NCBI GenBank assembly: GCA_001816585.1
Contig: MHCJ01000003.1
Location: 11,013-75,012, forward strand
Direction of reading: 5' to 3'
From: Candidatus Chisholmbacteria bacterium RIFCSPHIGHO2_01_FULL_52_32
GTDB taxonomy: Bacteria > Patescibacteriota > Microgenomatia > UBA1400 > Chisholmbacteraceae
Length of the DNA: 64,000 nucleotides
Part shown: piece by piece, positions 4,353 to 62,745 of the stretch
Layout of the letters: each line of letters starts with the position of its first letter
How positions within the stretch are numbered: the stretch's first letter is position 1
The notes under the pieces: generated by a model
What the model was told of the DNA's origin: nothing
Seen by the model: the letters and a program-made list of their open reading frames with translations, nothing else
The model's database searches: none
Made by a program: the position numbers and the translations under genes

Positions 4353-4357
<5 letters not shown>

Positions 4358-20930: not shown

Positions 20931-20965
20931 ATTTAAAGACCTTGAAAGGTCTGACCTTTCAAGGT
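20931..20965. repeat. REP palindrome doublet (ACCTTGAAAGGTCTGACCTTTCAAGGT)
   Basis: Perfect inverted 12-mers ACCTTGAAAGGT / ACCTTTCAAGGT. The same element recurs at about 21447-21475, 21660-21695, 29668-29703, 39463-39493 and 51815-51852. A variant CCTTTAAAGGAGNCTCCCTGCAAGG occurs at 10252-10285, 20355-20385, 36690-36720 and 51146-51180. Confidence 0.8.
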
Positions 20966-21651
20966 CGGTCGATGGTGAGACCTGGAAGGAATGGGTCCGG
21001 CGTTTCATCCTTGGTTTCCACGAACGATTCGTAGGAGGTAAAGTCGATACTCCCGATTCTTCTTCTCGATTTGAAAAAGGCGAGGATTTCTTTCGGCTGA
21101 ATCCATGCGGTCGTTCGCAGCCCAAGATACTCCGCGTAACTTGAGTAGGGATAGTCTTTGAGCGGTTTTTCCCAAAATTTCATTGGATTTTTGTGGATGT
21201 AGCGACTGAGGTGGAGGAACTGCTCGTTGGTTTCCACAAGTACGGCTTTATACACACTCTCAAATAATGATCCTAATCTTCCGTGTGTCTTGTTGAAGTG
21301 AACAGCATACCGAGTTGCTAGGGACTGCATGAATTGTTTCATCATATTTTTTGTCTGTTGCATTACCAGGAGATGGAAGTGATTTGGCATCAGGCAGTAC
21401 GCGAGCAGCTTGAGTTTCCCGGAACAATTCTTGGGTTGATGCGGTATACCTTGAAAGGTCGAACCTTTCAAGGTGAAGGATTGGACGAGGGCTTGTGGGT
21501 TTGGCGGGGGTGAGAGCGCTGTTTTTAGGATATTTAGGAAGACCTGATAATCTTTTTTGCCGACAAAAATAGATCGTTTCTCAACACCCCGATTGTAAAT
21601 ATGGTAGTACCCACCTTCGACATTGATCTTGCGGGTGTGCTTTCGAGGCAT
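20959..21651 (-). CDS. IS200/IS605-family Y1 (HUH) transposase homolog; REP-associated tyrosine transposase (RAYT)
   Basis: MPRKHTRKINVEGGYYHIYNRG ... LLAYCLMPNHFHLLVMQ (HuH motif) ... catalytic Tyr region. REP copies lie immediately upstream (21660-21695), inside the gene (21447-21475) and downstream (20931-20965). Confidence 0.8.
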   Translation of the reverse strand: MPRKHTRKINVEGGYYHIYNRGVEKRSIFVGKKDYQVFLNILKTALSPPPNPQALVQSFTLKGSTFQGIPHQPKNCSGKLKLLAYCLMPNHFHLLVMQQTKNMMKQFMQSLATRYAVHFNKTHGRLGSLFESVYKAVLVETNEQFLHLSRYIHKNPMKFWEKPLKDYPYSSYAEYLGLRTTAWIQPKEILAFFKSRRRIGSIDFTSYESFVETKDETPDPFLPGLTIDRP

Positions 21652-21699
21652 AATATTTATCCTACCTTGAAAGGTCTGACCTTTCAAGGTTGGTGTTTG

Positions 21700-30392: not shown

Positions 30393-30396
30393 CCCA

Positions 30397-30480
30397 GGGT
30401 ATAGGTTTTAGGGTATAGGGTCTAGGGTTTAGGATAGGGACCTCAGTTTTCAGCCTTCAGTCTTCAGTTTTCAGTTTGTA
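30397..30480. repeat. Heptamer repeat tract (TAGGGTx then TTCAGTC types)
   Basis: gtatagg ttttagg gtatagg gtctagg gtttagg ... tcagttt tcagcct tcagtct tcagttt tcagttt. Confidence 0.75.
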
Positions 30481-33965: not shown

Positions 33966-34078
33966 TGCTGTTTTCAGTATAGCAAATGGCCGATGGCTGA
34001 TGGCAAATGGCTGATGGCTAATGGCAGATAGCAGAGACCTAAACCCTAACCCTAAACCCTAGACCCTAGACCCTTCTT
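33966..34078. repeat. Heptamer repeat tract (ATGGCTG/ATGGCAA then CCTAAAC/CCTAGAC types)
   Basis: aatggcc gatggct gatggca aatggct gatggct aatggca gatagca ... cctaaac cctaacc ctaaacc ctagacc ctagacc. Confidence 0.75.
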
Positions 34079-45908: not shown

Positions 45909-46030
45909 AGATAGGGGATAGGGTTTAGGGTTTAGGGTTTAGCATTCATTTTCAATCATCAGTCTTCAGTTCTCAGTCATCAGCCATTAGCTATTGGCCA
46001 TCTACTATCTGCCATACGCCATTTGCACTC
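45909..46030. repeat. Heptamer repeat tract (TAGGGTT x3 then CAGTCTT/CAGCCAT/CTGCCAT types)
   Basis: gatagggtttagggtttagggtttagc ... cagtctt cagttct cagtcat cagccat tagctat tggccat ctactat ctgccat acgccat ttgcact. Confidence 0.8.
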
Positions 46031-46091: not shown

Positions 46092-47615
46092 ATGCCGAAA
46101 CGGAGACTTAGGATTTTTATTGTTGCGGCGGAGGTGGCGCCGTTTTCTTCGGTCGGAGGACTTTCGCAGGTCATGTACTTTCTCCCGAAAGCCTTGGCAA
46201 ACTTAGGCCATGAGGTACGCGTCCTGACTCCGAAATACGGAACCTTGGACGAGAAACGTTATCCGCTCTCCGTGGTGTATAAAGGCCTGCGCGTCCCGAC
46301 CGGGGAACGGGAGGGAACCACGGAGCTGGTGTGCAACATCAAAGCTTCCCGAAAAGGGGCCCGGGATCCTCAAGTGCTTTTTCTTGAGAACATGGAGTAT
46401 TACGAACAGCGGAGTAACGTCTACGGCTACAACGATGACCACATTCGCTTTGCCCTCCTTTCCAGGGGGGCAGTTGCGTTTTTACTGAAGGACAAGTGGA
46501 TCCCCGATATCATCCATACGAACGACTGGCATACCGCTTATCTTGTCAACGATCTCCGAACACGTTATGCAGGAGACCCTAAGCTTTCGAAGGTGGCAAC
46601 GCTTCTCTCCATGCACAACCTCCACCAAGGCTGGTTTGATTTTTCCAATGCCTCCGATCTGGATTTTGACGACGGCAAGGGGCCGCTGGCTAGTTTTTTT
46701 TCCGATCGCCTGTTTAAGCAAAATTCCCTCAAAAGAGGGATCATCTACTCCGATGCAGTCAATACGGTTTCGGAGACCTATGCCCGCGAAATCATGACGG
46801 AGGAGTTCGGAGCCGGCCTTGAGAACCTCATTAAAGAGGTGAGAACCAAGGTTTTCGGGATCCTCAACGGGATTGATTACACGGATTTCAATCCCTCAAC
46901 CGATCCGCTCATCAAGAAGAACTTTTCTTTGTCAACCCTTGCGGATCGGGTGGAGAACAAGGTTGACCTCCAGAAAGAGTTTGATTTGACCGTTGATCCT
47001 TCGATTCCGATCCTTTCCATTATGGGGAGGCTTGATACCCAGAAGGGATTGAACTTGGTCATGGATGTGCTTCCGTTTGTCCTTGATGAATACAATGTGC
47101 AGTTCATCGCCATGGGGGGTGGAGACCCCCAGTATCGGGATTTTTTCCTTGACCTTGAGAAGCGGTACCCGAAGCGCGTCGGAACTCACCTGATGCCGAA
47201 TTTCACGCTTCCGAGAAAGATTTTTGCCGGGACCGACTTACTCCTCCTGCCAAGCCGGTGGGAGCCGGGCGGAATCGTGGCGATTGAGGGTATGCGGTAT
47301 GGGGCGGTTCCGCTCGTTAGGACAACCGGGGGCTTGGCGGATTCCGTTTCGGAGTTCGATCTTGTCAGCGGGAAGGGGACCGGGTTTACCTTCGAGCATT
47401 TCCATTCGTTGGCGTTCATGGGGGCGTTGACGCGAGCCCTGGTGCTTTTTTCGCAAGCGAAGCTTTGGAAGAAGCTGGTCCGAAACTGCATGCTGGCGGA
47501 TTTCTCCTGGAAGAAGGCGGCAAAGCGGTACGAGGAGATGTATTTTCGGGCGATTGATTTTCGATCAAAGCAGCTGAAGAAAAACCCGGGCGAAGCGTAT
47601 CAGGTGGAATATTAA
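46092..47615 (+). CDS. glgA: Glycogen/starch synthase (GT5, ADP-glucose type), paralog 1
   Basis: MPKRRLRIFIVAAEVAPFSSVGGLSQVMYFLPKALANLGHEV (K-x-G-G-L motif region). GT-B C-terminal domain. Confidence 0.85.
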   Translation: MPKRRLRIFIVAAEVAPFSSVGGLSQVMYFLPKALANLGHEVRVLTPKYGTLDEKRYPLSVVYKGLRVPTGEREGTTELVCNIKASRKGARDPQVLFLENMEYYEQRSNVYGYNDDHIRFALLSRGAVAFLLKDKWIPDIIHTNDWHTAYLVNDLRTRYAGDPKLSKVATLLSMHNLHQGWFDFSNASDLDFDDGKGPLASFFSDRLFKQNSLKRGIIYSDAVNTVSETYAREIMTEEFGAGLENLIKEVRTKVFGILNGIDYTDFNPSTDPLIKKNFSLSTLADRVENKVDLQKEFDLTVDPSIPILSIMGRLDTQKGLNLVMDVLPFVLDEYNVQFIAMGGGDPQYRDFFLDLEKRYPKRVGTHLMPNFTLPRKIFAGTDLLLLPSRWEPGGIVAIEGMRYGAVPLVRTTGGLADSVSEFDLVSGKGTGFTFEHFHSLAFMGALTRALVLFSQAKLWKKLVRNCMLADFSWKKAAKRYEEMYFRAIDFRSKQLKKNPGEAYQVEY

Positions 47616-47714
47616 AACATAGGGTATAGGGTTTAGGGTATAGGGTTTAAGTGGCATGTGACGTTTTCGTTTTCACTTTTGACTTTTGAGATTTGACTTT
47701 TGCGTATATTACCC

Positions 47715-48863
47715 ATGTATCTAGCTTTGGTTCTTCACATCTATCAGCCGCCGACGCAGTACCCGGAGATGGTGCGGCGGATTACCGAGCAGTCGTATAC
47801 GAAGATTGTTGATTTGCTGGAACGGTTTCCAAAGGCTAAGATTACCCTGAATATTCCCGGTTCGCTGTCAGGACAGTTACTTGAAATGGATTATGAGGCG
47901 CTTTTGGGACGGATCCGGCGTCTTAGTGAGCGTGGGCAAGTGGAGCTGACCGGGACTGCGGCCTATCATCCCATTCTTCCTCATCTTCCCAAGACGGAGA
48001 TCGTCCGCCAAATCAAGATCAACACGAGCATCAATACCTCTTTCTTTGGCAGTTCGTATCAGCCGAGGGGATTCTTTCCTCCTGAGCTTGGGTATAGCAA
48101 GGGTGTTGGGGAGGTGTTGGAAGAGCTTGGTTTTCAGTGGGTTTTGGTTGACGGGACGGCTCTGGCGGACTGGCAGAAGTTTTTAGCGTTTGTTTACGTG
48201 CGGAAGGGGGGAAGGCTTTTTGCATTTCCCCGTGAAGATACCTTGAGTTGGCGGATCGCCTTCGGCAGGCTGAGAACTTTGGTTGGTCTGCGGCGGGCGA
48301 TTGGGAGAGGGGAACTTGCCAAACAACAATACGCGGTAGTGGCAATGGACGGAGAGACGTTCGGACATCATCAGCCTCGGCAGCTTGAATTACTCGAACA
48401 ACTGTTTTCCCGATCGGATACTGACGGCGGAGTTCCGCTGGTTTCCGTTTCGGAGCTGGTTACGCTTTTCTCAAGAAGGAAGGAGGTCGATGTGGCTCTG
48501 TCCACTTGGGGGTACACGGAGTGGGTTGACGGAGAACGGGTGTGGGTTCGTTGGCGGAATCCCCAAAATCCCCTTCACACGCTTCTTAAGAAGTTTCAGG
48601 AGCTTTCCTTTCGGTCCGTCACCGAGAATGATGCCAAATCCAGGCAGATTCTTGACCGGGCGCTGTGTTCGGATACCTTCTGGTGGGCTTCCGGCCGTCC
48701 GTATAAGCATCCCGGGATGGTAGAGCGCGGATCACGCCTTTTTCTGGATGCCATTCTTTCGAGCGAGAGCGCGACCACCTTTCAGAAGCAGGAGGCGAGG
48801 GAGCTTCACCATACAATTTCGCGGATGGGGTATCGGGTACCCGGGAAACGCAAGAGAGGATGA
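47715..48863 (+). CDS. Glycoside hydrolase family 57 protein (alpha-glucan branching/transferase-like), paralog 1
   Basis: N-terminal HIYQPP, AAYHPILPHLP, and the nucleophile region AMDGETFGHHQ match GH57 conserved regions. ATG at 47715. Confidence 0.7.
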   Translation: MYLALVLHIYQPPTQYPEMVRRITEQSYTKIVDLLERFPKAKITLNIPGSLSGQLLEMDYEALLGRIRRLSERGQVELTGTAAYHPILPHLPKTEIVRQIKINTSINTSFFGSSYQPRGFFPPELGYSKGVGEVLEELGFQWVLVDGTALADWQKFLAFVYVRKGGRLFAFPREDTLSWRIAFGRLRTLVGLRRAIGRGELAKQQYAVVAMDGETFGHHQPRQLELLEQLFSRSDTDGGVPLVSVSELVTLFSRRKEVDVALSTWGYTEWVDGERVWVRWRNPQNPLHTLLKKFQELSFRSVTENDAKSRQILDRALCSDTFWWASGRPYKHPGMVERGSRLFLDAILSSESATTFQKQEARELHHTISRMGYRVPGKRKRG

Positions 48864-49046
48864 GGGAGGAAAATATGAATTACGAATTATGAGTTATGAA
48901 TTATGAATTATGAATAAAGCACTAAAGGAATAGAGAGAGGGAAGAGGGCGATTTGGAATTTACGATTCAACATTGATAATTGATGAATTTTTGGCTAACG
49001 GATGCTATATGCTTAATTCTTGATTCATTATTCTTGATTCTCTCCT

Positions 49047-50384
49047 ATGCTTTGGGCAAACTTCATGCACATCTACCAGCCTCCGGATCAAAAGCGGTTC
49101 ATCATAGATGCAGTGGTGCGCGAAGCCTATCGGCCGATTATCTCCATTTTGATGGATAATCCTCAGGCGCGGATAACGATGTCGATCGTCGGTTTATTGC
49201 TTAAGAAGCTTGATACCGAGGGGTATCGGGATGTGATTGATGGATTGAAAACTCTGGTTTCGCGTGGGCAGATCGAACTTACCGCAGGAACGATGTACCA
49301 TCCCTTTCTGCCGAAACTACCTGATAGTGAAATAGTCCGTCAAATCAATCTGAATAACGAGAGTCAGCACTTTTACTTCGGGAGTGCTTATCAGCCGCAG
49401 GGATTCTATAGCCCAGAGGCGGGGTACAGTTACCGGGTGATGGAGATTGCGCATTCGTTCGGATACCGATGGACGATTGTCGATGAGATTGCGTACTCCG
49501 GATTCTTAAGCCGGAGAGGGTATGATTTCCAGCACACTCCGGGGTTTTACAGCGGCGGATTGGACCTCGAGCGGATCGTCGGAACAGTCAGCGGAGCGGG
49601 GAAGGGGAAAACGGAGAAGCGGCGGTTTGTCGATTACAGCAAGCTCTATAGCATTCGGGGACTTCATGGCTTTTTGGTCAATTTCCGGGAACGGGTGATC
49701 TCCGATGCTTTAGCTTCAGGGCAAATCACGACTCCGGAACAATTTCTTGAGGTGCTTAAACCCGAAATGACAAAAAAGCGGTATCTTTTAACCGGCACGG
49801 ATGGGGAAGCGTACGGGCATCACCAGAAGGGATTGGATCATGTTTTAGGACAGCTCTACTGGCGGAAAGCTTTGGAGACGGTCACGATTTCCGAGCTTCC
49901 GCAGCATTTCCCGGTTGCTGAGGAGGTGGAGCCGATACCCTCGACTTGGGGGACGAGTGAGGAGGAGGTTGCGGCTCGCAACTACTATGCCCGATGGCAC
50001 CACATTGACAACGAACTTCACGATAAGCAGTGGGCGCTCACCGATTTGGCGATCCATGCAGTCACTTCTGGTACGGCGAAGCGGAAGACGGTTTCAGCCG
50101 AGGCACGGAAGATGCTTGATGAGGCGCTGTACTCATGTCACTACTGGTGGGCGTCGGCGCGGCCTTGGTGGTCGATAGAGCTTATCGAGCGGGGGGCACG
50201 AAGCCTAGCGGACGTCGTTGCGGTCGCAGAGGGGTACACGGGAGGGATTCGGGAGGTGGAAAAAAAGAAGGAAGACAAAGGGCGAGCGGGAAAGGCCCTA
50301 CGGCTGTATCAGGACATCGTCTTCACCGCGTTTGATTGGCTGAGGACGGAGAAGGTGTGGGACCTCTCCCATCTCCACAAGTGA
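49047..50384 (+). CDS. Glycoside hydrolase family 57 protein, paralog 2
   Basis: MHIYQPP, TMYHPFLPKLP, GTDGEAYGHHQ. Collinear with 47715..48863. Confidence 0.7.
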   Translation: MLWANFMHIYQPPDQKRFIIDAVVREAYRPIISILMDNPQARITMSIVGLLLKKLDTEGYRDVIDGLKTLVSRGQIELTAGTMYHPFLPKLPDSEIVRQINLNNESQHFYFGSAYQPQGFYSPEAGYSYRVMEIAHSFGYRWTIVDEIAYSGFLSRRGYDFQHTPGFYSGGLDLERIVGTVSGAGKGKTEKRRFVDYSKLYSIRGLHGFLVNFRERVISDALASGQITTPEQFLEVLKPEMTKKRYLLTGTDGEAYGHHQKGLDHVLGQLYWRKALETVTISELPQHFPVAEEVEPIPSTWGTSEEEVAARNYYARWHHIDNELHDKQWALTDLAIHAVTSGTAKRKTVSAEARKMLDEALYSCHYWWASARPWWSIELIERGARSLADVVAVAEGYTGGIREVEKKKEDKGRAGKALRLYQDIVFTAFDWLRTEKVWDLSHLHK

Positions 50385-50404: not shown

Positions 50405-51145
50405 TCAGTCAACCGAGATTAATCCACGTGCTTGTGAGATCAAACGGGCGACGCTCGCATATTGAGACAGCTTATCATCGGGAATCAACTGACGAAGAGT
50501 CACGGCTTCTTGGGCTAACTGTTGGAGAGGGGGGTCTTCTCTTTTCTGCTTTGATCCTTGATTAAAGTATGTGTTGAGAAGATTCAGCGGAACGATACGA
50601 AGGAGACGTGGGACGTGTTGTATTCCGGTTTGGAAGCTATGTTCAAGTTCATCGATGAGTGTGACGCTCATTCCCTGAGTGATTTCTTTTTTTATGGTCG
50701 ACAATTGGGGGTTTTCGGCGGAAGTTTGTGTCGTTGAGAATTCGTTGGCCGTGCCTCTAGACGGAAAGAGCAAGCTGAAAACAGCTACAGTGTCTGGATG
50801 AATTACGATATGGTTGTTGATCGTGTCGTAGTGACCGCTCTGGAAGCCAAATTTTCTGAGTATCGAATTGTCGGAAACAGCCACTATATCTTCGAGTACT
50901 CCCTCATCGCTATCGAGATTGTAGGCCAGGGGAAGAAAACGGCGAGATACATATTCCCTTTCGCCAAGAACCAAGCCACCACGAATGATAATCCGATCGA
51001 GTCTCGACTGTCGACCCTGACCTAGCTCTGACATGAGCTGCGCCATAGCCTGGGGCTGAAATTCAAGGTCGAACCACTGGGGCGGATATTTCTCGTCGTG
51101 AAGCACTTCCGGAATCGTGAATGGAGTTGGGGCTTCAGGAGTCAT
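50405..51145 (-). CDS. Hypothetical protein (first gene of the REP-flanked cassette)
   Basis: 246 aa, ATG start, no recognisable motif. Confidence 0.35.
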   Translation of the reverse strand: MTPEAPTPFTIPEVLHDEKYPPQWFDLEFQPQAMAQLMSELGQGRQSRLDRIIIRGGLVLGEREYVSRRFLPLAYNLDSDEGVLEDIVAVSDNSILRKFGFQSGHYDTINNHIVIHPDTVAVFSLLFPSRGTANEFSTTQTSAENPQLSTIKKEITQGMSVTLIDELEHSFQTGIQHVPRLLRIVPLNLLNTYFNQGSKQKREDPPLQQLAQEAVTLRQLIPDDKLSQYASVARLISQARGLISVD

Positions 51146-51180
51146 AGATTACCTTTAAGGGAGTCTCCTTTAAAGGTGGG
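51146..51180. repeat. REP variant with a shared GGTGGGTTAGCCGC tail (left copy flanking gene 51181..51810)
   Basis: cctttaagggagtctcctttaaaggtgggttagccgc. The same tail follows the REP at 51815-51858. Confidence 0.7.
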
Positions 51181-51810
51181 TTAGCCGCTGATGTAGCGGG
51201 CGTGGTTTCTGACATTGGGTTCCAGAAGCGCATTGGCCTTTCGAATCTCTTGGCAGACGGTCTCTACAGGTTTATTCTCTGCGTCGATGAGGATTTGTGT
51301 ACGGAAGCGGTTCCATCCGCCATCGCCAACATAAACAAAGAAACGAGGGAGAGTAAGCGACTCAAGTTTGAACTGTGGCTCTCCCCAGGCTTGAATGTAG
51401 ATGTCTGGCCGGAGTGACCCGGTGAATCGTTGGACAGTTTGGTCGTATCTCTTGACGAGGTAGACCGCAAATTGAAGGGCGACATTTGGTGTCCAGTCGC
51501 GGCGGGTAATTTTCCCAGGTCTGGCAAAAGACATGTCATAATCATAAGATCTACTGACCGGGTAAACTGATTCTTCTGAATGAAGTACGTTGAGAAGGTA
51601 GGCATATGCCATGTCGGGCGGTCCTGGGTTGGGACGCATATTCTCAGGATATTCGATTTTTTTGGAGACTAGAGCGAGTGGCTCGGATCCGAAACGGGCG
51701 TAGAAATCCTGGGCAAAGCAAGAGAACACACTTTTAAGGAATGGGTCGTATTCAGCCCGTGAGCGTTCAATGGTGTTGCGGAGTTGGTTTCGTTCGGCGG
51801 GAGTAGTCAT
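51181..51810 (-). CDS. Hypothetical protein bracketed by direct REP copies
   Basis: 209 aa, ATG start. Direct repeats ...AAGGTGGGTTAGCCGC sit immediately at both ends. Confidence 0.35.
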   Translation of the reverse strand: MTTPAERNQLRNTIERSRAEYDPFLKSVFSCFAQDFYARFGSEPLALVSKKIEYPENMRPNPGPPDMAYAYLLNVLHSEESVYPVSRSYDYDMSFARPGKITRRDWTPNVALQFAVYLVKRYDQTVQRFTGSLRPDIYIQAWGEPQFKLESLTLPRFFVYVGDGGWNRFRTQILIDAENKPVETVCQEIRKANALLEPNVRNHARYISG

Positions 51811-51814
51811 GTCA

Positions 51815-51858
51815 GAGTTATCGACCTTGAAAGGTTCGACCTTACAAGGTGGGTTAGC
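51815..51858. repeat. REP palindrome with the GGTGGGTTAGCCGC tail (right copy)
   Basis: gaccttgaaaggttcgaccttacaaggtgggttagccgcggg. Confidence 0.7.
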
Positions 51859-51998
51859 CGCGGGCGCGGGTGATGGCCGCCCCGCACAACTCCTGCCTGA
51901 TCTACGGCGTACCGCCTGTACTCTAAGGCACGTCGTATGCGGGGCAGGCTCGAGAATTTGTCAGATCTTGCCATCGCGAATCCTGCGCGGTAATCGGA

Positions 51999-52625
51999 TT
52001 ATCCTCGAGCTCTTGTAATTGCCGCGATGATGAGGATGATGACGAAGAGGACGACAGCCACAATGACGCCGGCTCGGCGTACTCCGGAGAAGAACCCGCC
52101 TGTTTGGGGAGCGATGGTTGGGCTGGCTTCCGGCTGTTCGACAATCTCTCCGAAGCTTTGGGCTGGGGTAGTTCTGGCTGTCGGCGCGGTCGGTTGGGGA
52201 GTTCCCTCGAGGAAACGGATGGATTGGACTGCCCCTTGCATGACGATATCAGCAGAAGGGGTCCTGGCCCGGTTGCCGCGTTCCCTGGTGACAAGGAGGC
52301 TTGAGAAAGCGGTCTTCGTCTTGAACTGCGCTTTTCCGACCCCAAGGTCACCGAGTTTGGCTGCATTTCCGCCGGTGGTCGGATTAGTCCAGAGCGTATA
52401 GGTGAATTCCTCTGGAGTCGCAGGGTAGATCAGGTCACGACAGCTGACGACGACCTGGTAGTTGTAGTCGGGCATGAGTACCGAGGCGGCAAAGCAGCGG
52501 GCGGCTTGGCCCGTGGTCGAACGAAGCTCGGCGGTACCTTCAGAGGCATGCACGGCACGCGCTCCAGAAAGGAACAGCGCTGCGGCTACAAAAAAAGCGG
52601 CGGACAGAAGCCGTAATGATTTCAT
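51999..52625 (-). CDS. Secreted protein with a C-terminal TM anchor (hypothetical)
   Basis: Signal peptide MKSLRLLSAAFFVAAALFLSGARAVHA. C-terminal AGVIVAVVLFVIILIIAAIT. Confidence 0.4.
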   Translation of the reverse strand: MKSLRLLSAAFFVAAALFLSGARAVHASEGTAELRSTTGQAARCFAASVLMPDYNYQVVVSCRDLIYPATPEEFTYTLWTNPTTGGNAAKLGDLGVGKAQFKTKTAFSSLLVTRERGNRARTPSADIVMQGAVQSIRFLEGTPQPTAPTARTTPAQSFGEIVEQPEASPTIAPQTGGFFSGVRRAGVIVAVVLFVIILIIAAITRARG

Positions 52626-52734
52626 ACAAGAGTATTATAGGGTATATTTTAAAAAATGCAAGTACCAGAGCGATGTCTGACTTCTAATGGTGAGTGGGAA
52701 TGGTTCTTATCGAAGGCAGTTTACGGTCGGACCA

Positions 52735-53208
52735 TCATTGGAGGATCCTTAGCCTGCCTTTTGCCCACTGCTGAACTTGGGCAAGTGAATCTTCTGGTCG
52801 GATACCGACGATTGAGAAGAGGATGACAACTTCCTTCCCTTCGCTTTCGGATTCGCCAAAGCCGAGGACAATCTTGGGTAAAGACTGTTTAACGACATGG
52901 GCTTCCATCATGGTTCGTAGCTCAAGATCTTTCTCTACCGGTAACAACTTTACCCTCTCGGGGACATCCAAACTGAGGATTTTTTCGTAGATCGTTCGGA
53001 TCTCTTGGGTTTTATGCAACTGTATCAAAGCATAGAATTCTCCCAGAGGACTCGTTGCGGGAAAGACGCCGACAAGTGTATTAATCTCTGAGGGAACATC
53101 GATCAGACCTCTGAGTACGAAGTTATTCACTCCCTGTTCGGGTGTAAGGCGGGAGAATCGATCGATACTTTCATAGAGAAGGTGGGGAAAGGGTACTTCG
53201 GCTGGCAT
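52735..53208 (-). CDS. Hypothetical protein
   Basis: 157 aa, ATG start. Confidence 0.35.
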   Translation of the reverse strand: MPAEVPFPHLLYESIDRFSRLTPEQGVNNFVLRGLIDVPSEINTLVGVFPATSPLGEFYALIQLHKTQEIRTIYEKILSLDVPERVKLLPVEKDLELRTMMEAHVVKQSLPKIVLGFGESESEGKEVVILFSIVGIRPEDSLAQVQQWAKGRLRILQ

Positions 53209-53345
53209 ACGATCATATTATAGGCTTTCCTGCCGAGGAGTCAAATGCGGTTCTTGGGTAGTATAGGGAATATGATCTATCTTATCCTTGAGACCAAGAT
53301 TTTAGGGCGGCTCAGCGCGCAGGTCCTGAAGTATTGACGGAGGGA

Positions 53346-53768
53346 TTAGGTCGGCTGAACTTCGGTTGGTGCGCTTTCCCGGGAGGCGAAGTAGGCTTGG
53401 ATGCCAGACAGAATTTGGTCCCCGATAATTTCAAGTGGTTTAAGGCCCCTTTCGTGTTGGCCGATGAGGTTAATGGTTGTGTTCTGGAGTTCCTGTCCGC
53501 GCTTTCTTTTTTCCTGGGCTTTGCGGTGGGAAGAGGTGATGCCAAAGGGAACGATCCCCGCGGCGGTTTCCACCAGATAATGGATGCCTTTGCTACGTTC
53601 TTCGGGTGACGCGGTTTCCCACCAGAGGATTTGTCCAAAATCTTCAAGGAGTGCCAGGGCTGACTCGAATTGACGCTCGTATTGGGTCCTTTTTCTCCTA
53701 TCCTGAATTGCTTCTCGGTTTACTTGACTTAGCCTATCAGTCTGGTGGTTCGGCGCTTCTGCTGACAT
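53346..53768 (-). CDS. Hypothetical protein
   Basis: 140 aa, ATG start. Confidence 0.35.
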   Translation of the reverse strand: MSAEAPNHQTDRLSQVNREAIQDRRKRTQYERQFESALALLEDFGQILWWETASPEERSKGIHYLVETAAGIVPFGITSSHRKAQEKRKRGQELQNTTINLIGQHERGLKPLEIIGDQILSGIQAYFASRESAPTEVQPT

Positions 53769-53817
53769 CGATCAGCGTGATTGTATCATAGAGGATTTTT
53801 CGGAGTCCATGAGGAGG

Positions 53818-53859
53818 TTTCTTGATTTTGGTTGGGAAAATTGTAGAATTGCGGGCAAG
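53818..53859 (+). promoter_or_regulatory. Conserved promoter/5' region, copy 1 (TTGATT-17-TAGAAT then TGCGGGCAAG ATG)
   Basis: cttgattttggttgggaaaattgtagaattgcgggcaagATG. Near-identical blocks precede the ATGs at 54755 and 55953. Confidence 0.5.
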
Positions 53860-54636
53860 ATGGGTGATCTTGAGGAGGCTAAACAAAGATATCTTGCAAG
53901 GAAGCAGGCCGAAGAAGCTGAGCAGCGAGCTGTGGAGACAGAGAGGAAAGCGGCTCTGGATTTGAAGTCCACGCAAGTGGCTGAGGAGTGGCGTCACCAT
54001 GAAGCAACATTCAAGGATCAGATTCTTCCAGCTCTTGTAGGTATTGAAGATGATTTCTGGAAGAATCATCTTTCTCCTCAAGTATTGGGTCTCTTTGATG
54101 ATGCGGCTAAAGAAATTGCAAGGAGAGAGCAAATAGCAATGAATAGGAGGATATATTTTGATCATGGAGTTGATCTCAGGGTGGAGCGAGCTCCTGATGT
54201 TACAACTGCTTACCAACGATATAAGCGTGACATGACATTGTTAGGACATTACTTGTACGGAAATTATGAGTTCAAAGAAAGACTTGATCTGAAGCATTTG
54301 ATCTCACTTTGGGAAAGTGGTGAGCTTATGCATCTCCCGGTTACCATGCTGGTTAGCTTTGGGAAAGTAGGGAGGCCGATACCCCCAACTATCGATATAG
54401 TCGGTGGGGGCTCAACATTTGAGGTAAGTTTTAGGGTTGAAAGGGATGGGGTTGTTCGTTGGGGTTGGGGAGATCTTTCTGATGAGTTAGGGGAGAGGAA
54501 GTTTCAGGAGTATAACGGAGATTTCCATACGCTCGCCGACCAATTGTGGGCTGGTATTGAAAAACGGATTTATATGAAAACATATAATATTCGAGGAGGA
54601 GTAGCACGTGATGGTGATGAGCAGGGATGGGCATGA
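53860..54636 (+). CDS. Hypothetical protein, paralog A of a three-member tandem family
   Basis: Starts MGDLEEAKQRYLARKQAEEAEQRA (charged coiled-coil-like) and shares the motif IEDDFWKNHLSP with paralogs B and C. The track ORF begins at an upstream TTG (53809), before the promoter. Confidence 0.45.
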   Translation: MGDLEEAKQRYLARKQAEEAEQRAVETERKAALDLKSTQVAEEWRHHEATFKDQILPALVGIEDDFWKNHLSPQVLGLFDDAAKEIARREQIAMNRRIYFDHGVDLRVERAPDVTTAYQRYKRDMTLLGHYLYGNYEFKERLDLKHLISLWESGELMHLPVTMLVSFGKVGRPIPPTIDIVGGGSTFEVSFRVERDGVVRWGWGDLSDELGERKFQEYNGDFHTLADQLWAGIEKRIYMKTYNIRGGVARDGDEQGWA

Positions 54637-54699
54637 GTGCGGGTTATGGGTCCCAAGGTGACCACGGTTCAGGAGCGGATAAGGGATGATGAAGATTGT

Positions 54700-54754
54700 C
54701 TAAAGATAGAGGTTTGTTGATTTTAGTGCAGAAAATTGTAGAATTGCGGGCAAA
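54700..54754 (+). promoter_or_regulatory. Conserved promoter/5' region, copy 2
   Basis: ttgattttagtgcagaaaattgtagaattgcgggcaaaATG, preceded by the conserved ggataagggatgatgaagattgtctaaagatag. Confidence 0.5.
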
Positions 54755-55888
54755 ATGGCTTGGAATCAAGAATCAGAGAGAATGAGGGTCAGGGAGAGAG
54801 AGGTTGATGAGGTCTTAATTACTCACACCGTCGAGCACGTAGTCCGGCTGACTACAGGAGCTGAGTCTGTTGATCCAATATCACGATGGGATGTTCTTCA
54901 GGAACTTGTGATTCCTATCCTAGAGCTTGATTATTGGAGAAGAAACATCACTCCAGAGATTGAAGTCTTACTTCGAAATAATGCGCTTGATCTTCAGGCC
55001 AGAGAGCGCCGTAAGTATGGAGAGACGCTGGAACTCTTGCCTCGATATTTTTCAGCAACAGCGACGGTCCTAGATGAGAGAGACAAAGTAACACTTTTAT
55101 CACGGCTTCAAAATCCCTACCGAGATATGAACCCCTCACAAATAGTTGATTTGTTATCACGAAAGAGAGGATGGGTAATGGAACAATTGGATGAGATGTT
55201 TACTGTCGGGAGAGGGTTTGTTTTTTCTCATGAGAGGTTGCTGGAAGGATTACCGCCCGAAGAATTGCCAGGAACAAGGAGGGTTTGGTGTGTAGGAGTT
55301 CAAGCTGTTGGCGACAGGATGAAAGCCTTTATAGGAAGTGAGGAGACTGACTTTAACCGTCACGTTGCGGCAAATAAAAAATGGGATAGCGCTGGTCTTT
55401 CACGGTGGTTTTCGGAGCATATTCAATCTGGAAAAAAGGGGCATACTTTTTTCCCACTTCAGTGGGATGAAATATATCGAGGAGGCTGGTATTGGAATAT
55501 TGATCAGCCCTCTATTAATAAACCAGTCGAGTTCATAGCAGCGATCTCCCATATAGGATCGTTTTCAGAACTTCTTGTACTTCTTGCAGAGAAAGACAGG
55601 TTTATCACCAAGCCAAAGGTGGTTGTTGTCAAGCCTGAAGAGCAAGAAGCGAAGCAGACACTCACGCAAACTATCTATACCCCAGAATTTGGTCTATCGG
55701 AACCGCCACTCATTTCAGATCCAAGGTTGGCTTTAAATCCTCGAGCACAGATGTTGGCGGCACAAGGGTTTCCGGAATGGAAGATACGGGCAATGTTTGA
55801 TGAGGAGGAGATGGAAATGCGTAAGCGTTCTAGTGGAGATCGCTATCTCCGAGGAGGAGATCACGCGTCGGGAGCGGATAGGGGATGA
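54755..55888 (+). CDS. Hypothetical protein, paralog B
   Basis: 377 aa. Shares LELDYWRRNITP with A and C. Ends ...GADRG, followed by the conserved GATAGGGGATGATGAAGATT block. Confidence 0.45.
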   Translation: MAWNQESERMRVREREVDEVLITHTVEHVVRLTTGAESVDPISRWDVLQELVIPILELDYWRRNITPEIEVLLRNNALDLQARERRKYGETLELLPRYFSATATVLDERDKVTLLSRLQNPYRDMNPSQIVDLLSRKRGWVMEQLDEMFTVGRGFVFSHERLLEGLPPEELPGTRRVWCVGVQAVGDRMKAFIGSEETDFNRHVAANKKWDSAGLSRWFSEHIQSGKKGHTFFPLQWDEIYRGGWYWNIDQPSINKPVEFIAAISHIGSFSELLVLLAEKDRFITKPKVVVVKPEEQEAKQTLTQTIYTPEFGLSEPPLISDPRLALNPRAQMLAAQGFPEWKIRAMFDEEEMEMRKRSSGDRYLRGGDHASGADRG

Positions 55889-55899
55889 TGAAGATTCTT

Positions 55900-55952
55900 T
55901 AAGATAGGGATCTCTTGACTTTAAACAAAGGAAATGTAGAATTGCGGGCAAT
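55900..55952 (+). promoter_or_regulatory. Conserved promoter/5' region, copy 3 (TTGACT-17-TAGAAT)
   Basis: cttgactttaaacaaaggaaatgtagaattgcgggcaatATG. Confidence 0.5.
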
Positions 55953-56681
55953 ATGAGTAGACTTGAGGAAGCGAGAGCTAGAATTGCAGCTCAAGAACAT
56001 GCGGCACAGGAAGCCAGGGAGAAATGGGAGCAAGAGGAAGAGCTACGTAAAAGAGACTTTGAGTCTCTCAAGCCTGAGCTGGAAAGAATTGAGCTCGAAT
56101 TCTGGCGGGCACATGTCCCAGTCCAACTTACTGATCTCTATTCGGAAGTGCGAAGAACAATTGAAGAGAAAGAAGGATTTCAGATGGATGAAGTCATCAG
56201 ATTTTACTATGGGGAGTATTCACTGCATCATGAGGTTGTACGTTACTCTTCTGGTAAACAAGAGAATCGATGGGATAAAATGTATGGTCTCCGAGATGAT
56301 GCGGTTGGATTATGGAGGGAAGGGAAATTAGCCCAGATTCCTTTGCGGAGCGTGTCACTTGAATATATTCATAGCAAGAGAGCTGGCGACTCTGAAACTG
56401 TCAACAGAATACACTTTGAAGTTGGTCAGGATGATAAAGCCACTTGGACTGTGGGTGACGGAAAAAAATATTTCTTTGATCCAGAAAGGGGAATACATGG
56501 GAACTTTGACAGAGATGGACATGGTAAATGTGGAACTTCCAATTCTGATATAGATTTACTCGCGGAGCTTATGATCCCGTTTATTAATGGAAGACAATAC
56601 CATTACGGGATTGATCATTCTCCTGGTCCAAAAGACCGAGCTGGTGATGATGGGAGCTCTGGTGGTCCTGGCGGGCATTAG
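55953..56681 (+). CDS. Hypothetical protein, paralog C
   Basis: MSRLEEARARIAAQEHAAQEAREKWEQEEELRKRDFESLKPELERIELEFWRAHVPVQL; Gly/Asp-rich C-terminus. Confidence 0.45.
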   Translation: MSRLEEARARIAAQEHAAQEAREKWEQEEELRKRDFESLKPELERIELEFWRAHVPVQLTDLYSEVRRTIEEKEGFQMDEVIRFYYGEYSLHHEVVRYSSGKQENRWDKMYGLRDDAVGLWREGKLAQIPLRSVSLEYIHSKRAGDSETVNRIHFEVGQDDKATWTVGDGKKYFFDPERGIHGNFDRDGHGKCGTSNSDIDLLAELMIPFINGRQYHYGIDHSPGPKDRAGDDGSSGGPGGH

Positions 56682-56786
56682 GTAACTTGAGGATCAGCCA
56701 TAGGCTTGATCTGAGCAGAGGATGTCTTCCTTGTTAGATTCCCCTTATCGTTGTCTTCTTTCTCCATCTCGCATATAGTTAATTTT

Positions 56787-56855
56787 ATGCGTGTGCTTTT
56801 TGTTGCCGCGGAGGCGGCGCCTTTAGTCAAGGTCGGGGGTTTGTCGCAGTCTTAA
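56787..56855 (+). pseudogene. Truncated remnant of a glycogen synthase (glgA) 5' end
   Basis: atgcgtgtgctttttgttgccgcggaggcggcgcctttagtcaaggtcgggggtttgtcgcagtcttaa encodes MRVLFVAAEAAPLVKVGGLSQS*. The 5' part matches glgA-2 (57831) and the GGLSQ part matches glgA-1 (46092). Confidence 0.55.
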
Positions 56856-56897
56856 GGAAATGATCAGGAGTTTATTCCAAGCGCTGGTTTACTATCG

Positions 56898-57539
56898 TTA
56901 AACAGCTCGTACTACTTCCGGATCTCCTTGACTAAACCGAGAAAGCTCTTGTTTTATGGCTTCGGGGTTGCTATTCGCCCTTATTAGAGGACCCATCGTT
57001 TCGGATAGCCATTTACCGTCGATTGTTTGCTGGGAATCACGCAAGATTCTCCTGCCGTCACTGGCCAGTAAAGACCAGGCTACCCCGCTTGATAATGCGT
57101 GCTGTCGTTCGTTGGGTCCTCTGGAGGTGTTGAGAAGCTCACGGATATAGGTTGCAAGCAGCCAGCGCTGGGCTCCTGCCGCTCTTTCGGATCCCAACTC
57201 CCTATAGTGTGAATAGTTGGGTAGATTTCTTATTCTTTCTACAAGAGCTTCTCTTGTCCGATCGAAGAAAGAATCCGCAACGCCGCTATTGCCGGAAAGA
57301 TACAGACGCATTGAAGATACTTCAAGTTTCACCTGTTGTCGTAATAAGCCTTTTATGATTTTGTCCGCAGCCTCCAGTCCACTTTTTGTTGAATCAAACT
57401 CGGCAAACCTTTCTAGTGCATCAAAGACGCTGCGTATTCCATCCTCAGTCTTCCTCTTTACTTCTGCGAGGAGGGTTTCTTTTTTCTCGGTTGGCGTTTG
57501 TTCTTGAGGGATTCCTTCTTCCTCGGGAGGTTGTTCCAT
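56898..57539 (-). CDS. Hypothetical protein
   Basis: 213 aa, ATG start, acidic N-terminus. Confidence 0.35.
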   Translation of the reverse strand: MEQPPEEEGIPQEQTPTEKKETLLAEVKRKTEDGIRSVFDALERFAEFDSTKSGLEAADKIIKGLLRQQVKLEVSSMRLYLSGNSGVADSFFDRTREALVERIRNLPNYSHYRELGSERAAGAQRWLLATYIRELLNTSRGPNERQHALSSGVAWSLLASDGRRILRDSQQTIDGKWLSETMGPLIRANSNPEAIKQELSRFSQGDPEVVRAV

Positions 57540-57738
57540 AGCCTTCTTGTTGTAGAGGACTGAAGATAGTGTACTACAAAAAGGACAGTATAAACATTCC
57601 TTGCGAGGTAGTCTTGAGAAGTCATTGGGGAACCAGAGCGGTTCCTTCGTGGACGCTCTTCTTGAAACGAAAGGCGTGCGAGGAGAATTATCTGAAGGTG
57701 GGACATAATTCCTAGGTTCTTTGACAACTTGTCACGTA

Positions 57739-57772
57739 GAGGTCGGACCTCTGCACAGAGGTCCGACCTCTT
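57739..57772. promoter_or_regulatory. Perfect 15-bp inverted repeat (AGAGGTCGGACCTCT gcac AGAGGTCCGACCTCT) in a divergent intergenic region
   Basis: Read directly in sequence. Lies between the minus-strand gene 56898..57539 and glgA-2. A related GGTCCGACG-tta-CGTCGGACC hairpin occurs at about 61041-61065. Confidence 0.45.
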
Positions 57773-57830
57773 AAGGCTCCTATTTTTCATGAGTCTTTGC
57801 CATAAGAAGAATTCATAGTACACTTAAGCA

Positions 57831-59159
57831 ATGCGCGTCTTATATGTTGCTGCGGAGGCGGCGCCGATTGTCAAGGTCGGGGGTCTTGGGGATGTAGCGG
57901 GAAGCCTTCCTTTGGCTTTGAAGCGGCTAGGGGTGGATGTGCGGGTGGCTATCCCCTGGTATCCGGAGATCGATGCTTTGCGATGGCAAGTTCAGGAGAA
58001 CGGTGGGGTGGGGGTGACGAGGCTTGGCGAGAGCGAGGTGCCAGTCTATCTTCTGGCTCGGGATGTGTTTGCCGATGCCGGGCCTCATAAGGCGATCGCG
58101 GGGACGAAGGCAGAGGAAACCTGGTTCTCCGGTTTCTGCGATGCGGTCGTAACGTTTCTGAAAGACTCCGAATGGAAGCCGGAAGTCTTGCACGGGAACG
58201 ATTGGCATGTGGCACGGGCCTTGTCCTTTGTTGAGAGAACCTCTCGTGAGACCTTCAGCCAGTGGGGATTTACCCATAAGAACCTGGCGACCATCCTCAC
58301 CATTCATAACCTCAGCTACCACCCAAAAATGATGAAAGAGGCTATTCTTGCTGCGGATGTGATCAACGCGGTTTCACCGACCTATGCGAAAGAAATTCTT
58401 ACTTCAGATTATTGCGAGGGACTCTGTGAAGAGCTCAATGCACGGAAAGCAGATCTTTACGGGATCTTAAACGGGATTGATTACGGAGTTTGGAGTCCGG
58501 AGACGGATGCGCGTGTCTCGACTAAGTACAGCACGGTAACTTGGAAGACGGGAAAAGCGGGAAACAAGATGGCTTTGCGGCAGAAGCTCGGTCTTGCAAA
58601 AGAGGGGGGAATGCTTCTCGGGTTTGTCGGCAGGATCGACGCCAACCAGAAGGGCATCGGGATTTTGGCTGAGGCCATGGACCGGTTGGTGGCGTTGGGT
58701 AGCCAGGTGGTCGTACTGGGGACCGGTGACCCGAAATATGAGAAACGACTGGCCTTGGTGGCTGCCCGTTATCCGAAGAACGTCGCATGTATTTTGCGCT
58801 ACGATGAAGATTTGGCGCACCTTATCTATGCGGGGGCGGATGCGCTGCTTATTCCGAGCAAATTTGAACCCTGCGGATTGATCCAATTGATCGGCATGCG
58901 GTATGGAACTCTCCCAATTGCGCGGGCAACCGGGGGACTTTCCGATACTATTCGGGACGGTGAAACCGGGTTTCTGTTTACCGCATATTCTTCTCAAGGG
59001 TTGGTCGGGGCCGTTGAGCGGGCCCGGGACATGTTCGCGGCCGAACCGGTTTCATGGGAAGTGTTGGTCGGAACCGGCATGCGCGAGGATTTTTCCTGGG
59101 ACCGTTCGGCTGAAGAATATCTTAGGCTGTATGAGCGCGCGCTTGCAAAAAGTGGGTAG
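57831..59159 (+). CDS. glgA: Glycogen/starch synthase (GT5), paralog 2
   Basis: MRVLYVAAEAAPIVKVGGLGDVAGSLPLAL (canonical K-V-G-G-L-G-D-V). GT-B C-terminal domain. Confidence 0.85.
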   Translation: MRVLYVAAEAAPIVKVGGLGDVAGSLPLALKRLGVDVRVAIPWYPEIDALRWQVQENGGVGVTRLGESEVPVYLLARDVFADAGPHKAIAGTKAEETWFSGFCDAVVTFLKDSEWKPEVLHGNDWHVARALSFVERTSRETFSQWGFTHKNLATILTIHNLSYHPKMMKEAILAADVINAVSPTYAKEILTSDYCEGLCEELNARKADLYGILNGIDYGVWSPETDARVSTKYSTVTWKTGKAGNKMALRQKLGLAKEGGMLLGFVGRIDANQKGIGILAEAMDRLVALGSQVVVLGTGDPKYEKRLALVAARYPKNVACILRYDEDLAHLIYAGADALLIPSKFEPCGLIQLIGMRYGTLPIARATGGLSDTIRDGETGFLFTAYSSQGLVGAVERARDMFAAEPVSWEVLVGTGMREDFSWDRSAEEYLRLYERALAKSG

Positions 59160-59355: not shown

Positions 59356-59712
59356 TTGGACGTCATCGGAAAAACACAAGGTCGTTCAACGCTTTCGATG
59401 GTGTTCCGCGGCTTCCTAACGCCTACCGAGCAGGTAATGCTTTCAAAGCGTGTTATGGCGGGGTTTTTGATCCTGTCCGATTGGGACGCGTATGCGATAT
59501 CCAGTGTGCTTAAGCTTTCGGTTTCAACCGTCTATAAGTTGAAGCATTATCTTGAGTTGAGCAAAGACTACCGGAAGTTTTTGGAAAAACTTTTACCTAA
59601 GAAAATTCCCTTCCAACCGCAAAAAGGTCCGTCGGCCATACCGCCATTGGTCAAGTTACTTGAGAACATCTTTGAGGGCTACAGGCATCGGTCAAGACTG
59701 CTCTACAGCTAA
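59356..59712 (+). CDS. Hypothetical protein
   Basis: TTG start in the track. The frame stays open upstream to about 59287 without an ATG. No motif recognised. Confidence 0.3.
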   Translation: MDVIGKTQGRSTLSMVFRGFLTPTEQVMLSKRVMAGFLILSDWDAYAISSVLKLSVSTVYKLKHYLELSKDYRKFLEKLLPKKIPFQPQKGPSAIPPLVKLLENIFEGYRHRSRLLYS

Positions 59713-60000: not shown

Positions 60001-60912
60001 ATGGCAAAGTTTGTTCCTGATGTGAATACGAGACGGTGGGTGGTGATTGCCCCTTCCCGCAGCAGCAGGCCGAAGGATAAGGATCATGACATCAATCACG
60101 GAGCGACGCCCGCGCCTGAGCCTCAAGTGGAACTTCCCAAGCGGAACGGCTACAGCTTTAATGAAACCTGCCCGTTTTGCTATGGAAACGAGAAGAGCAC
60201 GCCCCCGGAAATATACCGATGGGGGAGGAAAGATCCCCACGACCCGGATTGGGTGGTTCGGGTGGTTCCCAACAAGTATCCGATTACCGATATCCACGAA
60301 GTGATCATCCATTCTCCGGATCATCTGACCGATATTGACGATTTCCCTCAGGAACATGTGGAAATTATCCTGCGCGTTTACCGCGAGCGGTACAATGCCC
60401 TGCGGAAAAGGGGCCAGGTCATTATTTTTGTAAATGTCGGACCGCAAAGCGGTGCCTCGCTGCAGCATCCACACTCCCAAGTTGTCGTGGTGCCGCATCA
60501 GATCAATTTGGATGTGCTCGCGATTGAGCCTGTCGGTAATGTCATTGAGGAAGGGGAACACTTCATCGCCTGGTCGCCCGATTTTTCCCAATGGCCGTGG
60601 GAGGTGTGGATCGCTCCAAAAATCTGTTGTCAGCGGGAGCACGAGAAGGGAGAGCAGTGCTTTTTTGGCGGTATCCGTGACGAGCAGATTCCGGAGCTTT
60701 CCAGGCTTCTTCAGGCTATGCTGCAACGGCTGCTCGTTCGTTTTCCTGAGATGAGCTACAATTTCTATATTTTTCCGGGAGAATGTTGGTATCTCCGCTT
60801 GATCCCCAGGCTCGTCCACCGTGCGGGTTTTGAGCTCGGAACCGGGCTTTCGGTGAACATCGCCGATCCGACGACGGTAGCAGGGGAGCTGAAGAAGAAC
60901 GGCTCGGCTTAG
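60001..60912 (+). CDS. galT: Galactose-1-phosphate uridylyltransferase-like (HIT superfamily, GalT family)
   Basis: Zn-binding CPFCYGNE near the N-terminus and active-site GASLQHPHSQVV (H-P-H-x-Q). SD acggagg lies upstream. Confidence 0.75.
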   Translation: MAKFVPDVNTRRWVVIAPSRSSRPKDKDHDINHGATPAPEPQVELPKRNGYSFNETCPFCYGNEKSTPPEIYRWGRKDPHDPDWVVRVVPNKYPITDIHEVIIHSPDHLTDIDDFPQEHVEIILRVYRERYNALRKRGQVIIFVNVGPQSGASLQHPHSQVVVVPHQINLDVLAIEPVGNVIEEGEHFIAWSPDFSQWPWEVWIAPKICCQREHEKGEQCFFGGIRDEQIPELSRLLQAMLQRLLVRFPEMSYNFYIFPGECWYLRLIPRLVHRAGFELGTGLSVNIADPTTVAGELKKNGSA

Positions 60913-62689: not shown

Positions 62690-62745
62690 ACAGATAGGGT
62701 TTAGGGTATAGGGTCTAGGGTTTAGTGTCTCGAATAAAAGAAAGC
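62690..62745. repeat. Heptamer repeat tract (TAGGGTx) in the rplJ leader
   Basis: cagatagggtttagggtatagggtctagggtttagtgtctcg. Confidence 0.75.

Follow-up and report, generated by a model that had tools for sequence, protein, structure and literature searches.

How did 7.4 kb of hypothetical genes come to lie inside a glycogen gene cluster? The question is raised by a 64,000-nucleotide stretch of the genome of Candidatus Chisholmbacteria bacterium RIFCSPHIGHO2_01_FULL_52_32 (contig MHCJ01000003.1, positions 11,013 to 75,012), which in its whole length is referred to here as the window. Two glycogen synthase genes (glgA-1 and glgA-2) and two genes of glycoside hydrolase family 57 (GH57a and GH57b) lie on its plus strand, and the gap between GH57b (49047-50384) and glgA-2 (57831-59159) contains nine open reading frames (ORFs) of 140-377 aa and a 22-codon mini-ORF. 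The original prediction described this gap as an accessory island, a candidate for horizontal acquisition or rapid evolution, which suggested insertion or recombination within an ancestral operon and which ended in a chimeric fragment of the two glgA genes. The glgA genes, the GH57 pair, the repetitive extragenic palindromic (REP) elements, a family of three paralogs and a glgA remnant were all found where it had placed them. Our own reading, to which we assign a probability of about 0.65, is that region 50405-57830 is a plasticity zone which has grown in the GH57b/glgA-2 gap by successive insertion and displacement, through recombination with diverged related DNA.

Comparison with related loci bears directly on whether the operon was once contiguous. 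The synteny of the relatives was derived from exact-protein look-ups and one metagenome scan; a scan of genome contigs using glgA-2 with strict peptide patterns returned only relatives of at most 42% identity. In the more distant locus L105 (GH57b 55%), the genes glgA-GH57-GH57-glgA-galT-PGM-ROK form a tight operon with 7 nt from GH57 to the glgA-2-type gene, followed downstream by the same MerR ... L12-L10 synteny as in the window. Locus L051, from Saccharibacteria, likewise has glgA-GH57-glgA without a gap. The close relative L093 (assembly GCA_015665585.1; 86% identity at the GH57b C-terminus, 72% in glgA-2, 84% in galT) has a gap of 856 nt in which the orthologue of one window gene, i208, is the only gene, the order being GH57b, a hairpin, i208 and then glgA-2-galT. 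Because L105 and L051 are contiguous and the L093 gap holds i208 alone, the comparison of sequences supports an ancestrally contiguous operon, glgA1-GH57-GH57-glgA2-galT, which the gap now interrupts. On this point the original prediction stood.

The flanks are kept in all relatives in the same order and orientation (GH57b 70-86%, glgA-2/galT 55-84%), and what lies between them varies with the lineage. The gap measures 0.86 kb in L093 and 7.4 kb in the window; it reaches about 7.5 kb in L103 and L089 combined and 14.8 kb in L005 and L088, which lie on one 508-kb contig. In this last gap about 16 genes were counted, among them an i208 orthologue beside GH57b, genes for SDR, DUF4012, methyltransferase, PQQ/M23 and SNase proteins, and a GH77 gene beside glgA-2. 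L103 and L089 represent related lineages, with i208 94% identical between them (85% at the DNA level). L103 has GH57b (80%), a homologue of the window gene i246 at 28% identity, a hairpin and i208, without i209; L089 has i208, an HTH gene, NAGPA, a Cys-rich protein, a 97-aa gene, two genes of the paralog family and then glgA-2 (63%)-galT. In L104 (74%), i208 is followed by a GH15-like gene. A further relative, of 80% identity (the P0003/P0122 lineage, samples SRR15532675/6), carries directly 5′ of glgA-2 a 371-aa gene with homology to the paralog family at its C-terminus (E 2e-15), and has no i213. The flanks are fixed and the gap content varies, and the region is therefore best described as a plasticity zone or insertion hotspot. 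The suggestion of a rapidly evolving accessory region was thus confirmed.

One gene does not follow this pattern. The gene i208 (51999-52625, minus strand) encodes a protein with a predicted signal peptide and a C-terminal transmembrane anchor in its hydrophobicity profile, hence a putative secreted or membrane-anchored protein. Its orthologues, 41-58% identical, were found in L093, L089, L005, L007, L104 and L096-L103, and in every Chisholmbacteria-like relative covering the site it adjoins GH57b or is separated from it by i246 only. Judged from these alignments, i208 is the oldest resident of the gap, a predicted conserved surface protein and not island cargo. The synteny comparison thus cut both ways for the original prediction: glgA and GH57 are contiguous in L105 and L051, as an interrupted operon would have it, but a gene of the supposed island is kept in all covering relatives.

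A trace of probable displacement lies in front of glgA-2. The mini-ORF (56787-56855, 69 nt, 22 codons) encodes MRVLFVAAEAAPLVKVGGLSQS and a stop, and is preceded on the plus strand by a promoter-like TTGTCT-17-TATAGT (56751-56779), with the ATG at 56787, 8 nt past the predicted -10. It matches the 5′ end of glgA-2 at 45 of 54 nt, whereas 200 shuffles gave 33 at most, and has a blastn E value of 2.7e-8 in a search of the window; the similarity is thus beyond chance, and the earlier statement that its first ~50 nt match glgA-2 holds. The likeness to glgA-2 extends for exactly 19 codons (57 nt, to 56843), after which the reading frame continues with SQS and a stop and resembles no glgA. We rejected the idea of a decayed glgA pseudogene: tblastn of seven glgA proteins on 56682-57830 recovered the first 25 residues only, which identifies the relic as a clean truncation.

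The relic does not appear to descend from the neighbouring gene. Over 57 nt it agrees with the glgA-2 of L091 at 51 positions and with that of L093 at 49, compared with 46 for the resident copy. In the first 54 nt it differs from the resident at nine positions, seven of them in synonymous codons; among the seven codons concerned, five are synonymous and two change the residue (F/Y, L/I). Its upstream 50 nt are unrelated to the resident promoter (17/52) and resemble the upstream region of the L089 glgA-2 (29/50), and a blastn match of 77% covers 71 nt, from -14 to +57. Furthermore, the relic stands directly 3′ of a paralog gene, which is the position of glgA-2 itself in L089 and in the 80% relative, and i213 lies between it and the intact glgA-2. 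Taken together, these comparisons indicate that the relic is a leaderless-type promoter with the first 19 codons of another, presumably displaced, glgA-2 allele, nearer to the alleles of sister species than to the resident one.

The chimera proposed in the original prediction was not supported by this analysis. The relic is purely of glgA-2 type for 57 nt; its agreement with glgA-1 (35/54 nt) is explained by the common N-terminal motif of glycosyltransferase family 5 (GT5), and the GGLSQ codons said to match glgA-1 reduce to the hexamer TCGCAG (6 nt), which is not beyond chance. A related explanation is that the 5′ end of the resident glgA-2 was duplicated in situ, either in tandem or by Campbell-type integration of a circle carrying i213, and then decayed or was converted by glgA-1. 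Such an event would account for the 54-nt direct repeat of 83% identity that flanks i213 and for the agreement of TCGCAG (encoding SQ) with glgA-1 at the homologous position. It sits poorly with a relic that is nearer to the L091 and L093 genes than to the resident one, with differences that fall mainly in synonymous codons and with a foreign, L089-like upstream region; moreover, all 16 glgA-2 orthologues read KVGGLGDV where the relic turns to GGLSQ, and the glgA-1 match spans six nucleotides only. We regard this duplication as unlikely. Alternatively, the 22-codon ORF and its promoter could be a maintained regulatory element, serving read-through to glgA-2, antisense transcription of i213 or a small peptide. 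The -35 and -10 elements are intact, the ATG stands at a leaderless distance as in neighbouring genes, the frame closes with a stop, and the two other loci spanning the relic (L001 and L002) are identical to the window. Yet these loci are identical to the window throughout, hence uninformative about selection, and an orthologous relic was not seen in any relative; a retained regulatory role is accordingly rather improbable.

Two further scars had escaped the original prediction. The first, a second relic of a gene end, was found on the other side of i208. The 27 nt at 51854-51880, TTAGCCGCGGGCGCGGGTGATGGCCGC, encode AAITRARG and a stop on the minus strand, which is the C-terminus of i208. Its first 21 nt, TTAGCCGCGGGCGCGGGTGAT, are identical to the i208 3′ end of L093 (21/21) and nearly so to that of L103 (19/21). 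The resident i208 ends 118 nt away, at a stop codon at 51999, and uses other codons for these residues (...ACAAGAGCTCGAGGATAA).

This relic is joined to a REP-like hairpin. The palindrome, ACCTTGAAAGGT-nnn-ACCTTTCAAGGT, consists of two tandem mini-palindromes and occurs in five copies in the window where none is expected by chance (20939-20965, 21448-21474, 21664-21690, 51151-51177 and 51824-51850). The last two copies are extended by an 11-nt tail, GGGTTAGCCGC, which is the 3′ end of i208 and is missing from the other three. They thereby form a 38-nt direct repeat (51151-51188 and 51824-51861) that brackets the gene i209 (51181-51810, minus strand): the first copy supplies the stop codon of i209, and the second, as part of the hairpin-relic segment 51824-51880, runs into the 27-nt relic. 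An orthologous hairpin stands beside the i208 stop in L093 (in the GH57b/i208 interval) and in L103 (between the i246 homologue and i208), and coincides with rearrangement breakpoints; between L103 and L089, which share about 85% DNA identity, homology likewise ends precisely at the i208 stop and hairpin. The gene i209 itself gave no tblastn match in the relative loci L005, L007, L093, L103 and L104 and is the latest gene to have been inserted in the left slot. Although i209 and i208 are similar in length, they share no similarity, and the notion that they are paralogs was rejected.

Three scars are thus legible in the window lineage: the glgA-2 promoter with its 19-codon relic, the 27-nt i208 3′ relic and the 38-nt repeat around i209. 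We infer from them that DNA of diverged relatives carrying the same locus recombined here imprecisely and repeatedly. Homology would anchor one side of the incoming DNA and the other side would be joined illegitimately, as in homology-facilitated illegitimate recombination, so that every event would leave the end of the displaced gene beside an incoming full copy. Sequential displacement by this mechanism has been proposed for the arrays of type VI secretion systems (T6SS) and of Rhs genes (PMC5361080). In one economical version a segment of some 5 kb (51881-56843), which starts in the 3′ flank of one i208 allele, stops at codon 19 of one glgA-2 allele and includes the genes i208 to i242, would have entered whole; entry in two separate events is just as possible. 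Exchange with diverged alleles appears to be ongoing in the population, since the strain locus L004 matches the window along 3.2 kb but for 19 mismatches (15 synonymous) within 380 nt of GH57a (48239-48620), which resemble a tract acquired by homologous recombination with a diverged allele, and since the substitutions of glgA-2 variants are clustered.

Several points weigh against this account. Most of the relative loci are short metagenome contigs, and the compact L093 form could be a secondary deletion instead of the ancestral state. The relic is short, its upstream likeness to the L089 type is moderate (29/50), and its assignment to an allele depends on few substitutions. A donor lineage was not found in the collections searched, and the direction and number of the events are read from the scars only. 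Finally, the 38-nt flanking repeat is not predicted by classical homology-facilitated illegitimate recombination and may have arisen in another way, for instance by template switching or by an insertion associated with REP elements.

Another history would be one insertion event, between GH57b and glgA-2, of a genomic island acquired horizontally or of a prophage that has since degraded. Its attraction is that all nine genes are orphans, that the right half of the region (53.8-57.5 kb) has a GC content at third codon positions (GC3) of 0.35-0.42 against 0.545 ± 0.076 for the window, and that heptamer arrays are present in 0 of 10 intergenic gaps of the island against 14 of 41 elsewhere (p = 0.045). 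However, no integrase, recombinase, transposase or phage structural gene was found among the nine ORFs (Pfam, PHROG, NCBIfam, PADLOC), the gap contains no tRNA, no repeat pair in the window brackets 50405-57830, and scans of viral contigs for i246, i209, i157, i140, i377 and i213, a method that reaches close relatives only, returned no relatives. The gene i208 is orthologous and syntenic in every covering relative, as are i246 and the paralogs in sister species, and the internal scars point to several separate events. In composition, i246 to i140 are ordinary and only the paralogs and i213 are low in GC3, so that a deviation was obtained for the right part of the region only. The L089 paralogs are equally low compared with their neighbours, and the low GC3 of the paralogs is therefore a property of the family and not a sign of recent import. 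We consider a single acquisition very unlikely, and the horizontally acquired island of the original prediction gives way to a mosaic: as far as these comparisons can tell, the gap is composed of old residents and newer insertions, not of a single mobile element. A more trivial explanation, an assembly or binning artefact in which a chimeric contig fuses two separate loci, deserves mention as the source is a metagenome-assembled genome (MAG), but it is contradicted by the recurrence of the same arrangement at 100% identity across independent assemblies and by the synteny of both flanks in relatives. The window is identical to the ENA metagenome contig L001 across 21 kb, and the loci L001-L003, taken from contigs bearing GH57b, show 100% identity to it. 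The exact GH57b protein occurs on 15 contigs of independent assemblies (ENA, Logan, JGI, NCBI), the longest contig with these proteins measures 1.16 Mb, and in three Candidatus Chisholmbacteria MAGs (Microgenomates, candidate phyla radiation (CPR)) the locus tags from GH57b to glgA-2 are consecutive and all 'hypothetical'. The probability of an artefact is close to nil.

The right half of the gap is occupied by the tandem paralogs i275, i377 and i242, all on the plus strand. Each consists of a promoter box and a coding sequence, at 53814-53859 and 53860-54636 for i275, 54709-54754 and 54755-55888 for i377, and 55907-55952 and 55953-56681 for i242. The proteins are soluble and acidic and only 20-25% identical (E 3e-7 for i242/i275, E 0.02 for i275/i377). 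A 16-nt box, TGTAGAATTGCGGGCA, is identical in all three within a conserved upstream box of 50 nt; it is part of the predicted promoter TTGAYT-16-TAGAAT, with the ATG 11 nt past the -10. Two of the paralogs also have a 48-nt 3′ repeat in common. The same 16-nt box precedes a paralog in L089, where the upstream extension of the ORF reads FLDFSWRSGRIAGTM, compared with FLDFGWENCRIAGKM in the window.

The C-terminal tail GDHASGA is common to i377 and the second L089 paralog. The gene i275 lost this family tail by a frameshift: GDHGSGADKG and two stops can be read out of frame at 54657-54689, 20 nt past its stop. A frameshift-free strain variant of i275 was considered and rejected, the candidate P0261 being merely a longer N-terminal gene call. 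Among 1.84 billion proteins in 50% clusters, i377 has one other cluster representative (P0243, 48%) besides a fragment of itself (P0242, 236 aa, 100% identical), and a homologue of i377 lies 5′ of glgA-2 in L089. The family stands directly 5′ of glgA-2 in at least three lineages and combines a near-invariant promoter box and a GDHxSGA tail with an otherwise divergent sequence, and it could for these reasons be a functional, CPR-specific module instead of neutral filler. We think this rather doubtful. If it were true, the family would be a diversifying protein set tied to the handling of glycogen or host sugars, or, alternatively, a system of conflict between strains, with old alleles displaced by new ones through imprecise recombination; the relics of gene ends would then be explained as well.

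The remaining genes of the gap are distributed in two groups around these paralogs: i246, i209, i208, i157 and i140 precede them and i213 follows, all on the minus strand. None of the nine ORFs has a match in Pfam, PHROG, PADLOC or NCBIfam, and the region contains no Rfam match; the nearest tRNA is at 24 kb. The gene i246 (50405-51145) encodes an orphan soluble protein which evolves fast and keeps its position, with homologues in L097 and L098 as well as in L103. The orphans i157 (52735-53208) and i140 (53346-53768) were found, like i209 and i213, in this species only, while i246 and the paralog family are common to sister species. The ORFan i213 (56898-57539) has the lowest codon-usage score in the island and matches only itself among 5.8 billion proteins; it was not found 5′ of glgA-2 in L091, L093, L089, L090 or L088.

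Searches of PDB sequences gave no credible match for the orphan proteins, i209 included. AlphaFold models of i377 (from a four-row alignment) and i209 (from a single sequence) reached a pLDDT (predicted local distance difference test) of 47 and 45, respectively, and are unusable. As a group the orphan genes are soluble, acidic and fast-evolving, with leaderless-type promoters, and nothing points to a role for them in glycogen metabolism.

Predicted pairs of -35 and -10 elements occur at 53217-53244, 53822-53849, 54717-54744, 55915-55942, 56751-56779 and 57797-57824, each 7-11 nt 5′ of an ATG, in i157, the three paralogs, the relic and glgA-2. That of i157, a strong TTGACT-16-TATAAT, reads from 53244 to 53217. 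The spacing between promoter and ATG leaves no room for a Shine-Dalgarno sequence and thus suggests leaderless or near-leaderless mRNAs in this organism. The resident glgA-2 is preceded by a double palindrome (57738-57771) and the predicted promoter TTGCCA-16-TACACT (57797-57824), whose ATG follows 7 nt downstream; this stretch is conserved in L091 (41/52) and L093 (34/55). The sequence TAGTACACT occurs only twice in the 64 kb, at 57568-57576 on the minus strand 5′ of i213 and at 57816-57824 on the plus strand in the -10 region of glgA-2. The two sites, inverted to each other, could represent a regulatory box common to both genes or a small duplication in inverted orientation; the similarity extends over 14-15 nt only and is borderline, being reached by 1 of 300 shuffles (L091) and 27 of 300 (resident copy).

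The genes that flank the gap are unambiguous members of their families, with full-length profile matches above the curated cut-offs for both glgA and both GH57 genes. The left sub-cluster begins with glgA-1 (46092-47615), a GT5 glycogen/starch synthase of 507 aa (Pfam Glyco_transf_5, PF08323, E 4e-61, 207 bits), 73-77% identical to its counterparts in L005, L006, L007 and L104. It continues with GH57a (47700-48863; PF03065, E 3e-35, 123 bits) and with GH57b (PF03065, E 7e-27, 95 bits), which is conserved and anchors the variable region on the left; its orthologues share 55-89% identity. The right anchor, glgA-2, is a GT5 synthase of 442 aa (PF08323, E 4e-42, 145 bits), and its orthologues (55-80%) always have galT 3′ of them. 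In the window this GalT-like gene, identified by Pfam, occupies 60001-60912 on the plus strand and is 69-84% identical in relatives.

Two further observations concern the surroundings of glgA-2. A sporadic gene for a small basic protein, p118 (59356-59712, plus strand), lies in the glgA-2/galT interval; its orthologue was found in the more distant L090 only (53%), and L088, L089, L093 and the 80% relative lack the gene, which makes this interval a third small variable slot in the operon. The GH77 gene of L088 (contig_34727, 8610-9968) encodes a 4-alpha-glucanotransferase and is divergent beside glgA-2; the window has none at the corresponding place.

Window-wide, 36 short tandem arrays of period 7 were observed, with units such as TAGGGTT/TAGGGTA (nine sites), ATAGCAA, CCCTCAA, AGTTAAA, CGAAGCA, CTGAATA and TATGAAT, among others. 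Examples are located at 4240-4354, 7201-7278, 30396-30477, 33986-34074, 45919-45987, 47619-47702, 48874-48915, 49012-49041 and 62695-62725, and some arrays lie inside long ORFs (342-1757, 14611-16524). They are reminiscent of the short tandemly repeated repetitive (STRR) heptamers of cyanobacteria.

How does this locus compare with known systems? With plasticity regions and hotspots it shares conserved syntenic flanks and a lineage-specific content of mostly orphan genes. It differs in lacking mobility genes and a tRNA target, in its position within a metabolic operon in a small CPR genome and in its division into two sub-slots, GH57b/i208 and i208/glgA-2, whose breakpoints fall at a REP hairpin and at the ends of genes. 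The arrays of T6SS effector and immunity genes and the orphan 3′ ends of Rhs and contact-dependent inhibition (CDI) systems (PMC5361080) present the same picture of an intact gene beside the short orphaned end of a diverged allele, which is seen here twice, for the glgA-2 5′ end (56787-56843) and the i208 3′ end (51854-51880). In contrast to those arrays, it is not toxin/immunity pairs that are concerned but a glycogen synthase with a housekeeping role and a surface protein, and there is a single relic per gene. Integron cassette arrays also come to mind, given the short orphan genes, promoter-less at first sight, the imperfect palindromes between them and the hairpin repeats that bracket i209. 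Yet the genes have their own promoters and mixed orientations, and neither an IntI integrase nor attI is present; with no integrase, with hairpins at two junctions only and with a REP family that is dispersed, the integron interpretation was rejected. Lastly, the gene families are those of bacterial glycogen operons, which combine a GT5 GlgA with GH57 branching enzymes or amylases, and the order is that of the CPR operons L105 and L051, but here they form two transcription units 7.4 kb apart, with glgA-2 under its own predicted leaderless-type promoter.

No new system is revealed by the region. An insertion and displacement hotspot is a known and ordinary form of genome plasticity, and this one is unusual only for its legible recombination scars in a CPR genome. 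For annotation, the previously unannotated 22-codon ORF can be described as a glgA-2 relic and i208 as a conserved surface protein. Beyond this, the locus shows in good resolution how lineage-specific genes can be gained and exchanged at a fixed hotspot of a small, streamlined CPR (Patescibacteria) genome without mobile-element machinery.

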